Shown: positions 21,471-44,630 of the stretch, piece after piece | How positions within the stretch are numbered: position 1 is the stretch's first letter | Layout of the letters: each line of letters starts with the position of its first letter | Assembly (NCBI GenBank): GCA_041661505.1 | Contig: JBAZUF010000002.1 | Span: forward strand, 76,201-140,200 | From: Patescibacteria group bacterium | Lineage (GTDB): Bacteria; Patescibacteriota; Patescibacteriia; Patescibacteriales; JBAZCA01 | DNA length: 64,000 bases | Direction of reading: 5' to 3' | Notes under the pieces: generated by a model | The model's input: the letters and a program-made list of their open reading frames with translations, nothing else | The model's database searches: none | Told to the model about the DNA's origin: nothing | Made by a program: the position numbers and the translations under genes

Positions 21471-21569
21471 TGGCTGGGGAGAGGCTCGAACTCTCGACCT
21501 TGGCGTTATGAGTGCCACGCTCCCCGCCCGTACCGAACGGTACGTTCGGGCGGGTAACCAGCTGAGCTA
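21471..21569 (-). pseudogene. aberrant tRNA-Met(CAT)-like copy: 32-nt insertion in the D-loop and no 5' acceptor strand
   Basis: Aligns to the adjacent intact tRNA from position 8 to the 3' end. TCTAAGA replaces GGCTGGG. The insertion lies between GGTTA and GAGC. Confidence 0.75.
21523..21554. repeat. GC-rich palindromic element copy P1
   Basis: CCCGCCCGTACCGAACGGTACGTTCGGGCGGG. A near-identical copy lies at 24773-24805. Confidence 0.85.
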
Positions 21570-21585
21570 TCTTAGATTAAGTGTG

Positions 21586-21659
21586 TGGCTGGGGAGGGGA
21601 TCGAACCCTCGACCTTAGCGTTATGAGTGCTACGCTCTAACCAGCTGAGCTACCCAGCC
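21586..21659 (-). tRNA. tRNA with CAT anticodon (elongator Met or Ile2; not initiator-like)
   Basis: Acceptor GGCTGGG/CCCAGCC, loop CTCATAA, T-arm GAGGG-TTCGATC-CCCTC. Confidence 0.85.
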
Positions 21660-28328: not shown

Positions 28329-28413
28329 AATATAAATATTCTAACACATTCATTAAATATTGATGAGGATAGCTTGCTAACATAAAAACACCCTATAAAG
28401 GATGTTTTTAGTG

Positions 28414-28487
28414 TGGACAATATAGGACTCGAACCTATAACCCCCTCGGTGTAAACGAGGTGCTCTAGCCAATTGAGCTAATTGTCC
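28414..28487 (-). tRNA. tRNA-Val (anticodon TAC)
   Basis: Acceptor GGACAAT/ATTGTCC (same as the CAC isoacceptor). Anticodon arm CCTCG-TTTACAC-CGAGG. Confidence 0.9.
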
Positions 28488-28491
28488 CGAC

Positions 28492-28537
28492 AGTGGGCGG
28501 GAGAGGACTCCCTGCCTGCCGGCAGGCAGGGAACCTC
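28492..28537 (-). pseudogene. tRNA-Leu-like 3' fragment (T-arm plus acceptor strand) split in the T-loop by a perfect 20-nt palindrome
   Basis: Removing CCTGCCTGCCGGCAGGCAGG (28511-28530) leaves GTGGGCGGGAGAGGACTCGAACCTC. This nearly matches the 3' end of tRNA-Leu(TAG) at 44549 (GTGGGCGAGAGAGGACTTGAACCTC). Confidence 0.7.
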
Positions 28538-28553
28538 AATTGCCTGCTATATG

Positions 28554-28637
28554 TGCCGCAGAAGGGACTCGAACCCTTACGCTCTTGAGAGCACCAGCCC
28601 CTCAAGCTGGCCTGTCTACCGGTTTCAGCACTGCGGC
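28554..28637 (-). tRNA. tRNA-Leu (anticodon GAG)
   Basis: Type II tRNA: acceptor GCCGCAG/CTGCGGC, anticodon arm CCAGC-TTGAGGG-GCTGG, long variable arm. Confidence 0.9.
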
Positions 28638-44472: not shown

Positions 44473-44548
44473 TCAATAAGAGAAAATGACACATTCCAAA
44501 AAAGATAATTGGCTATCAGTCTGGAAGGAGTCGTGTTGTGTGCTAAGG

Positions 44549-44630
44549 TGGGCGAGAGAGGACTTGAACCTCCACGGGTTGCCCCACATGCTCCTAAGGC
44601 ATGCGTGTCTGCCAGTTTCACCACTCGCCC
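44549..44630 (-). tRNA. tRNA-Leu (anticodon TAG)
   Basis: Type II tRNA: acceptor GGGCGAG/CTCGCCC, anticodon arm CATGC-CTTAGGA-GCATG, long variable arm. Confidence 0.9.

Follow-up and report, generated by a model that had tools for sequence, protein, structure and literature searches.

The window, the whole 64,000-nucleotide (nt) stretch of contig JBAZUF010000002.1 analyzed here, contains a tRNA fragment that is split by a perfect 20-nt palindrome, named PAL below. The source organism is a Patescibacterium near Falkowbacteria, with a top ribosomal protein L19 match that is 75% identical among the GTDB species genomes. On the minus strand, rplS is followed by tRNA-Leu(GAG), a 15-nt spacer, the tRNA-Leu fragment with PAL (the stub), 5 nt, tRNA-Val(TAC), and a terminator. 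An initial annotation had described this palindrome as splitting the T-loop of a tRNA-Leu-like 3' fragment between the two intact tRNA genes, and had stated that deleting it restores a T-arm and acceptor strand. Both statements are confirmed in the sequence, since the stub minus the 20-mer is a canonical T-arm followed by a 3' acceptor strand.

The stub is composed of the 3' third of a tRNA gene. It has no 5' acceptor strand, D-arm, or anticodon arm, because the gap to the intact tRNA-Leu is only 15 nt, so that the 5' two-thirds of the tRNA is absent. By alignment to locus L064 (the loci used for comparison carry L numbers), AGGC at 28544-28547 in this gap may be leftover variable-arm sequence of the old gene. 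The repeat finder gives the palindrome as 24 nt (28509-28532). The additional bases are a chance extension, because the flanks of 172 copies elsewhere are complementary at the chance rate, which is 29% at position 1. PAL occurs once in the window and in none of 100 shuffles. A perfect 20-nt palindrome of some kind arises in 22% of Markov-simulated 64-kb windows and is therefore not significant by itself; PAL is non-random because more than 170 identical copies of it exist elsewhere. The locus is identical in two further independent assemblies of the same organism (L236 and L237), which argues against an assembly artifact, and there is no presence/absence polymorphism of PAL between these same-species contigs and the window. 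In the window, an Rfam 15 search with the gathering score as its threshold called nine tRNAs and a tRNA-Met stub, and no other known RNA family.

The stub was compared with the tRNA genes of related genomes. The order rplS, tRNA-Leu(GAG), tRNA-Val(TAC) is kept in 64 related loci. Without PAL, the stub has 1 mismatch in 24 nt to the tRNA-Leu(GAG) 3' end in L001, L016, L037, and L080, and 2 mismatches to that of more than 20 other relatives; the tRNA-Leu 3' ends of L064 and L065 can be aligned with it as well. The resemblance to the window's tRNA-Leu(TAG) (44547-44630) that the initial annotation had pointed out is real, with 2 mismatches in 24 nt, but it is not the best match, and the stub does not derive from tRNA-Leu(TAG). 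Among the tRNA-Leu(GAG) genes compared, that of L024 is nearest to the intact one of the window, with 76 of 85 positions identical, and all others, including that of the closest genome, L001, have at most 67. The spacer of L024 also holds tRNA-like debris and a GC hairpin. A tRNA-Leu(GAG) allele with the acceptor GCCGCAG occurs only in the window and at L024:10350. Because this allele is common to two genomes whose L19 proteins are only ~70% identical, horizontal spread of the gene is suggested.

A second GC-rich palindrome in the loop of a tRNA-derived sequence had also been reported in the window, and it was found in a tRNA-Met relic. This relic lacks positions 1-7, which form the 5' acceptor strand, lies 16 nt 3' of an intact tRNA-Met, and is followed by a terminator. 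A 32-nt GC hairpin (21523-21554; CCCGCCCG...CGGGCGGG) is located between D-loop A21 and G22, and over the 53 nt 3' of it the relic matches the intact tRNA-Met of L001 with 100% identity. Since the stubs match the genes of relatives and the intact copies are divergent, both stubs in the window are displaced resident alleles, and the adjoining intact genes are foreign, functional newcomers just upstream. At the tRNA-Leu and the tRNA-Met locus alike, a gene relic lies beside a complete working copy, with the working copy incoming and the fragment resident, as in a homing cassette. Decay of a tandem duplicate of the adjacent gene is rejected as an origin, because both stubs match the alleles of relatives and not their neighbors. 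The comparison across relatives that the initial annotation had proposed thus finds a conserved gene order around a stub that is not itself conserved. Stubs are present at approximately 16 of 70 related loci, and the Leu/Val locus is a hot spot for them. The features of the window are collected in the table; the neighborhood also encodes IF-2, RNase Y, L19, ribosomal protein S15, PNPase, and a major facilitator superfamily transporter.

Table. Features at the tRNA-Leu and tRNA-Met loci of the window.
Feature	Position	Strand	Description
rplS	29016-28654	-	
Intact tRNA-Leu(GAG)	28553-28637	-	tRNA gene call; divergent allele, acceptor GCCGCAG/CTGCGGC, T-stem AAGGG/CCCTT; replacement copy
Junction	28538-28552	-	15 nt from incoming tRNA-Leu to relic; no room for a 5' half
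tRNA-Leu stub	28493-28537	-	T-arm and 3' acceptor of the original rplS-linked tRNA-Leu(GAG)
Stub, T-stem 5'	28534-28537	-	GAGG
Stub, T-loop	28531-28533	-	TTC
PAL	28511-28530	.	Perfect 20-nt palindrome CCTGCCTGCCGGCAGGCAGG, between T-loop C56 and G57 of the stub
Stub, T-loop	28507-28510	-	GAGT
Stub, T-stem 3'	28502-28506	-	CCTCT
Stub, acceptor 3' strand	28495-28501	-	CCCGCCC
Stub, discriminator	28494	-	A, then C
Intact tRNA-Val(TAC)	28413-28487	-	tRNA gene call; 5 nt 3' of the stub
Intact tRNA-Met(CAT)	21585-21659	-	Replacement copy; compensatory pair differences from the relic in anticodon and T stems
tRNA-Met relic	21471-21569	-	Positions 8-73, resident allele; Rfam tRNA, 29.3 bits

PAL is a mobile or copied 20-nt unit that is strongly biased to tRNA stubs. 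The set studied, a lower bound among the matches listed, has 176 copies from 160 loci, and the context is distinct for 173 copies. Four other rplS loci contain exact copies, at six sites in all, and L044 has a variant that differs by one base. Exact copies are also found in at least 120 metagenome stretches (among the matches listed) and in 35 IMG/VR viral contigs. Contigs that bear PAL span 29-71% GC, and its density ranges from the single copy in the 64-kb window up to four copies within 9 kb in L140. Degenerate variants are present too, and the assemblies come from many projects and include complete genomes of cultured Flavobacteriia. There are no exact copies in 50,697 cultured phage genomes, and a literature search found the 20-mer sequence in no paper.

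In pairs of filled and empty sites, the difference is exactly 20 nt, and the target is neither duplicated nor deleted. Such pairs are provided by the paralogous hairpin repeats of L229/L221 and L230/L201, by the structured element of L065 in comparison to L045 and L039, and by the stub and intact copies in L232 and L174. PAL is therefore unlike a miniature inverted-repeat transposable element, where terminal inverted repeats are joined by a target-site duplication. Among 172 copies, the flanks contain no target motif and no excess complementarity, and only T is depleted at position -1. PAL is depleted from long open reading frames (ORFs), and in low-GC contigs it is mostly just 5' of ORFs or intergenic. 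Its association with TGTCATYC repeats is modest (6 of 176 copies). Outside of tRNA stubs, copies are found in the loops of other hairpins (L229/L221, L097, L144, and L065 at 10595). Many non-tRNA copies are surrounded by short motifs in tandem arrays (for example, GGTGAGA/TCTCACC heptamers) that form long hairpins (L209, L083, L126, L123, L224, and L230/L201), and paralogous arrays without PAL occur.

The initial annotation had suggested an element that targets tRNA loops or DNA hairpins and proposed a test of palindrome enrichment at tRNA loops. PAL interrupts tRNA-like sequence in 13 of 176 copies versus 65 of 16000 positions drawn at random from these loci (odds ratio 20, p 2e-12). Since 55 of these 65 random positions fall inside real tRNA genes, the odds ratio is 128 when PAL is compared with tRNA-like sequence outside of called genes, so that the enrichment in tRNA-derived stubs is 20-130-fold. 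The suggestion is supported in substance for tRNA sequences, but not for hairpins in general. The preference of PAL for hairpin loops outside of stubs is only weak (14% versus 8%), and general hairpin-loop targeting is rejected for this reason.

Within the stubs, most of the 13 copies lie in cloverleaf loops or loop-stem junctions, and one (L124) is inside the D-stem. The 3' junction of the D-loop, between A21 and G22, holds PAL in eight independent stubs. These are of Leu (L040), Val (L159), and Arg type (L174, Cellulophaga, and Flavobacterium nitratireducens), along with two stubs of L153 and one of L232, which are closest to tRNAs of the Lys, Thr, and Asn types. A PAL variant is carried at this same junction by L179 (Leu). 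The other sites are the 5' junction of the D-stem and D-loop (L174), the anticodon loop (Kaistella and L132), the junction of the T-stem and T-loop (L115 and L255), and the mid T-loop, as in the window. Deleting PAL resulted in no new ARAGORN tRNA call in the 160 loci, window stub included. A tRNA intron, either bulge-helix-bulge or group I, and a split tRNA are ruled out, because there is no 5' half and deletion of PAL restores no tRNA. PAL is never inside an otherwise intact tRNA, with one exception in the variable loop of a phage tRNA-Met (L225). Here, a complete tRNA-Met in a high-GC viral contig has PAL as its variable arm (L225:2239-2330, L202:8616). It is the sole case of PAL within a possibly functional tRNA, and the variable loop tolerates a long arm. 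A second hairpin family, CCYGCCCG...CGGGCRGG, has four occurrences in 2.26 Mb, three of which are in tRNA stubs, the tRNA-Met relic of the window included.

The genes around PAL were clustered by protein, using the 2306 ORFs within 2.5 kb of a copy. Only one protein family is present in more than four PAL loci, and it is composed of proteins of 80-90 amino acids (aa) that possess a GIY-YIG catalytic domain (PF01541, E 1e-15 to 1e-16). Six loci (L232, L153, L174, L124, L130, and L179) have the same order: the 5' part of a tRNA with PAL, the GIY-YIG ORF, and a complete copy of the same tRNA. One or two PALs lie in the D-arm of the stub in these loci, and the ORF starts at about the anticodon loop. 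The ORF of L179 is degenerate, and the intact gene of L124 is tRNA-Asn.

The cassettes were also sampled independently from the protein side, with 23 Flavobacteriia loci from four protein clusters and six ORFs of different clusters from Patescibacteria. The homologues of the L174 GIY-YIG protein are Flavobacteriia proteins. In Flavobacteriia, a tRNA-Arg(TCG) is located 2-120 nt from the GIY-YIG ORF in 21 of the 23 loci, and a stub carrying PAL or a variant is found in three of the four clusters. In the fourth cluster (L244), the ORF and the tRNA are present without a recognizable stub or PAL. Cellulophaga algicola DSM 14237 (CP002453.1; L243:680-1663) encodes four tandem units, two of them degenerate, followed by the intact tRNA-Arg gene. 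Each unit consists of tRNA-Arg positions 1-21, PAL or a variant, positions 22-31, and the ORF. F. nitratireducens (CP121111.1; L239:1137-1522) has one unit with a PAL variant. In Kaistella (L254/L255:1006-1560), the order is an intact tRNA-Arg, a terminator, the ORF, and a 3' stub with PAL in the anticodon loop; one strain has a second hairpin at the T-loop.

In Patescibacteria, all six GIY-YIG ORFs end 5-18 nt before an intact tRNA-Ser (L261, L265, L267/L269, L272, L273, and L033). A clear tRNA-Ser 5' stub with one or two TCCGCTC...GAGCGGA hairpins lies upstream of the ORF in five of the six, and only a hairpin is evident upstream of the ORF in L265. The stub allele of L261 is unlike the adjacent intact tRNA-Ser gene. 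In L273, the intact tRNA-Ser is followed by GGGTTCG, GC hairpins, and GAATCCCTCTCTCTCCGCCA, which is a 3' stub with T-loop hairpins in the same form as the stub of the window. Stub and intact-tRNA pairs outside of the window thus bracket a GIY-YIG gene, and the hairpin family appears to track the type of cassette, with PAL accompanying the tRNA-Arg of Flavobacteriia and TCCGCTC...GAGCGGA the tRNA-Ser of Patescibacteria.

The window fragment is probably a relic of a cassette that replaces tRNA genes and whose nuclease gene has been lost. Incoming DNA with a complete, divergent tRNA-Leu(GAG) would have inserted into the resident gene in place of its first ~47 positions, leaving the resident T-arm and 3' acceptor strand 15 nt downstream, and the same type of event would have occurred at tRNA-Met 7 kb away. 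Pairs of an intact tRNA and a stub would be the signature of small cassettes in Patescibacteria, Flavobacteriia, and other bacteria, where an 80-aa stand-alone GIY-YIG gene is placed between the truncated and complete copies of one tRNA gene. By analogy with free-standing GIY-YIG homing endonucleases, the nuclease would break a tRNA gene, repair would copy in the cassette along with its working tRNA, and the old tRNA gene would stay as a stub. Later, the nuclease ORF would be deleted, as may have happened in the window. A cassette of this family, or an ORF-less derivative, presumably delivered the new tRNA-Leu and tRNA-Met genes. PAL would be a cis element or a parasite of the cassettes, mobilized in trans and tolerated only in dispensable copies, and its presence would disrupt the stub, both in repeat homology and in tRNA-like folding. 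The most economical guess is that the nuclease recognizes the extruded cloverleaf structure and not a sequence, because the enzyme has no recognizable DNA-binding domain and the hairpins are concentrated in loops and loop-stem junctions. The restriction of PAL to stubs may have one of three causes. Insertions in the working copy may be lethal, cassettes with interrupted flanking repeats may survive longer, or PAL may be a cis site of the element; the last is favored by the apparent match between hairpin family and cassette type.

Several points weigh against a relic of such a cassette. The 64-kb window contains no GIY-YIG ORF or remnant (profile search, six-frame ORFs >=20 aa, best E 2.4), and cassette involvement at the window locus therefore rests on analogy. 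Approximately 90% of PAL copies are intergenic, with no GIY-YIG gene or tRNA nearby, so PAL can spread independently of cassettes. GIY-YIG proteins are hydrolytic nucleases and not strand transferases, and there is no known mechanism by which they would copy a 20-nt palindrome. The swap of a whole tRNA-Leu, including both acceptor strands, could also occur without an endonuclease, through homology-facilitated illegitimate recombination. Finally, the stub of L001 has a hairpin at the same T-loop position, which could mean that the structure is old, retained, and functional rather than a recent relic.

A wider and more tentative proposal is that PAL, CCCGCCCG...CGGGCGGG, and TCCGCTC...GAGCGGA are cis sites of an unrecognized class of bacterial mobile elements. 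This class would be driven by an 80-aa GIY-YIG nuclease, reduced to its catalytic domain, that reads structure and not sequence, the structure being the loop-stem junctions in the cloverleaf DNA of tRNA genes and in the hairpins. The element would insert into a tRNA gene and supply a replacement tRNA, and would therefore be hard to lose. PAL would be its minimal non-autonomous form, spreading alone across phyla.

PAL might instead be independent of GIY-YIG proteins. As an element like the repetitive extragenic palindromic (REP) sequences, autonomous in trans, it would insert where DNA extrudes hairpins, and tRNA stubs would be sites of insertion simply because they provide cloverleaf loops in DNA that is dispensable. 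The stubs would arise when foreign tRNA genes undergo illegitimate recombination of the ordinary kind. The many copies without a GIY-YIG gene nearby and the copies in non-tRNA hairpin loops fit this explanation, and insertion without duplication recalls elements of the IS200/IS605 and REP types. It is nonetheless unlikely. The loop preference outside of tRNA stubs is weak, no HUH/Y1 or other transposase recurs among the 2306 ORFs within 2.5 kb of PAL, PAL lacks the GTAG/GTGG head, and the hairpin family appears to be matched to the cassette.

The initial annotation had also considered that a tRNA stub plus hairpin is a module for 3' processing or termination. In this explanation, the stub and hairpin would be an RNA module selected in the Leu/Val spacer for precursor processing, exonuclease block, or attenuation. 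The T-stem and PAL do fold as a 15-bp hairpin within a 241-nt precursor of -95.9 kcal/mol (z = -2.9), at least 10 relatives have a different GC hairpin with compensatory stems 3-5 nt 5' of tRNA-Val, and the hairpin of L001 is at the same position. An intrinsic terminator is composed of a GC hairpin and a U-run, but here the hairpin is followed by UCCCGCCCACUGUC, with no U-run, and the terminator scan makes no call at the stub. Moreover, phage contigs and regions 5' of ORFs are among the unrelated contexts that hold the identical 20-mer, the stub lacks conservation in relatives, many of which have a spacer of 2-16 nt without any hairpin, and a simple hairpin needs no tRNA-derived flanks. A selected module is thus improbable, and the proposal is not supported for processing or termination; the stub hairpin may still have an RNA-level side effect.

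Tyrosine integrases often cross over in the T-loop of tRNA genes. Moreover, integrative elements classically leave tRNA 3' fragments 3' of intact tRNAs (PMC9897764), and the position of the stub downstream of an intact tRNA fits this footprint. That the stub is an attR-type remnant of integrase-mediated insertion is very unlikely, however, and is contradicted already by the sequence. The stub and the 3' end of the adjacent gene share only the 7-nt T-loop, the intact gene has the new type of acceptor in both strands, and the gap from gene to stub is 15 nt. The 16 kb from the stub to tRNA-Leu(TAG) are occupied by core genes (S15 and PNPase), and there is no integrase among the ORFs scanned around the locus. 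An integrated island from tRNA-Leu(TAG) at 44.5 kb to the stub is ruled out as well, with S15, PNPase, and other core genes in between. Chance, or an assembly or sequencing artifact, has next to no probability: some perfect palindrome of this length is expected in part of the simulated windows, but the locus is identical in three independent assemblies, more than 170 copies and degenerate variants are known from many projects and from complete genomes of cultured Flavobacteriia, and the placement of PAL is position-specific.

Other arrangements of tRNA copies and hairpins without an ORF are found in rplS loci. A complete tRNA is nested in an older copy between inverted GC arms at L004:10443-10628, L051:13120-13260(-), L159:1-260, and L005:10603-10860. 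The arms of L159, CCCGCCTGCC ... GGCGGGCAGG, resemble the two halves of PAL, and because of this resemblance PAL may be what such a pair of arms looks like when it is empty and closed up. In L003, each tRNA 5' half bears two hairpins. At L012:10640-10811, L025:10516-10763, L047:8713-9193(-), L065:14661-14964, and others, tRNA genes are followed by tandem units of 86-180 nt. Each of these units ends in the exact last 17-21 nt of that tRNA, and the long hairpin at its start takes in the final acceptor bases.

A GC-rich conserved element of ~170 nt, GCGAGTCTTGAGC..GGAA..GCGAAAAGGAGAGCG..., is found at L045:10570-10739, L039:10560-10752, L065:10540-10760, and L064:12640-12785. It is inserted in a T-loop-like site before a repeated tRNA 3' end, shows compensatory hairpin changes, and has no Rfam match; it could be a structured RNA. 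The motif AGTTTATGCCCC(N)GGGGTAA is located directly before the repeated 3' end of different tRNAs (Val and Lys) at L025:10578, L047:8744(-), L056, L050, and L044:2976, and is another T-loop hairpin family. A simple GC hairpin lies 3-5 nt 5' of tRNA-Val in L050, L046, L014, L056, L034, L045, L074, L076, L078, and L070. Its stems are compensatory between genomes (GGCGC/GCGCC, GGCAG/CTGCC, and GCGGC/GCCGC), and this hairpin may either serve processing and be conserved or represent an eroded stub.

If the cassette model is true, essential tRNA genes of the streamlined Patescibacteria and of Flavobacteriia would be repeatedly overwritten by selfish elements that bring their own tRNA. Such overwriting would account for the fast turnover of acceptor stems observed here and for the large number of tRNA stubs by which annotation is confused. 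It would also provide the first biological context for the very abundant 80-aa stand-alone GIY-YIG proteins, which have been without a known function so far. PAL would rank among the smallest dispersed repeats known, and the mechanism by which it is copied would be none of the known ones without modification. The window feature is a relic, yet it points to a widespread and experimentally accessible system. C. algicola DSM 14237 is cultured and completely sequenced and has a four-unit array, so the question is directly testable.

Several parts of this system have known counterparts, namely REP-type palindromes, tRNA fragments left by integrases, and free-standing GIY-YIG homing genes that bring a replacement for a piece of their target. 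The GC clusters of yeast mitochondria and the palindromic elements of Rickettsia are short GC-rich palindromic insertions that are tolerated in structured or constrained sequences. PAL is far shorter (20 nt) than these elements, has another sequence and other hosts, and is tied to tRNA stubs and GIY-YIG cassettes.

REP and REPIN elements are species-specific, imperfect palindromes with a GTAG/GTGG head, and their Y1/HUH transposase gene, the RAYT, is flanked by the repeats. PAL is similar in that it is a short, GC-rich, extragenic palindrome that is non-coding, has many copies, is presumably mobilized in trans, and causes no target duplication. Unlike REP elements, PAL is a perfect palindrome that starts with CCTG and is identical across phyla and over the full GC range given above. 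It is also strongly biased to tRNA stubs, and its copy number per genome appears to be low.

The tRNA fragments of integrative elements (PMC9897764) are likewise partial, non-functional tRNAs beside an intact tRNA gene. In contrast to these fragments, the loci described here have no integrase and no island, the stub is no direct repeat of its neighbor, and hairpins are located in the loops. Moreover, 5' stubs and nested whole tRNA genes (L004, L051, L159, and L005) are found as well.

Homing GIY-YIG genes are the closest in arrangement. In both systems, an essential gene has a small ORF within or next to it, the incoming DNA brings a working copy, the resident piece is kept as a fragment, and the alleles differ. 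In the mitochondrial atp6 gene of Allomyces, a GIY-YIG ORF brought a replacement 3' end, and the old one was left downstream. The neighborhood of tRNA genes is shared with T4 SegB, a free-standing GIY-YIG homing endonuclease gene in a phage tRNA cluster (PMC2330249). The cassettes differ from homing genes in other respects. The window is without the ORF, and the cassette proteins of ~80 aa consist of the catalytic domain only, with no recognizable DNA-binding domain, and cleavage is a predicted activity. Their stubs carry GC hairpins, tandem arrays occur, and their targets are chromosomal tRNA genes (Arg, Ser, Lys, Leu, Asn, and Val) of cellular bacteria in different phyla. The literature on GIY-YIG proteins with tRNA genes or partial tRNAs yielded only T4 SegB, the fungal mitochondrial cases, and integrase-derived fragments. 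Cassettes of chromosomal tRNA genes that are centered on an 80-aa GIY-YIG gene and have stubs marked by hairpins are apparently undescribed in the searchable literature, and the presence of PAL in tRNA leftovers near GIY-YIG genes of several phyla points to a mobile element that attacks tRNA genes and likewise appears to be undescribed.

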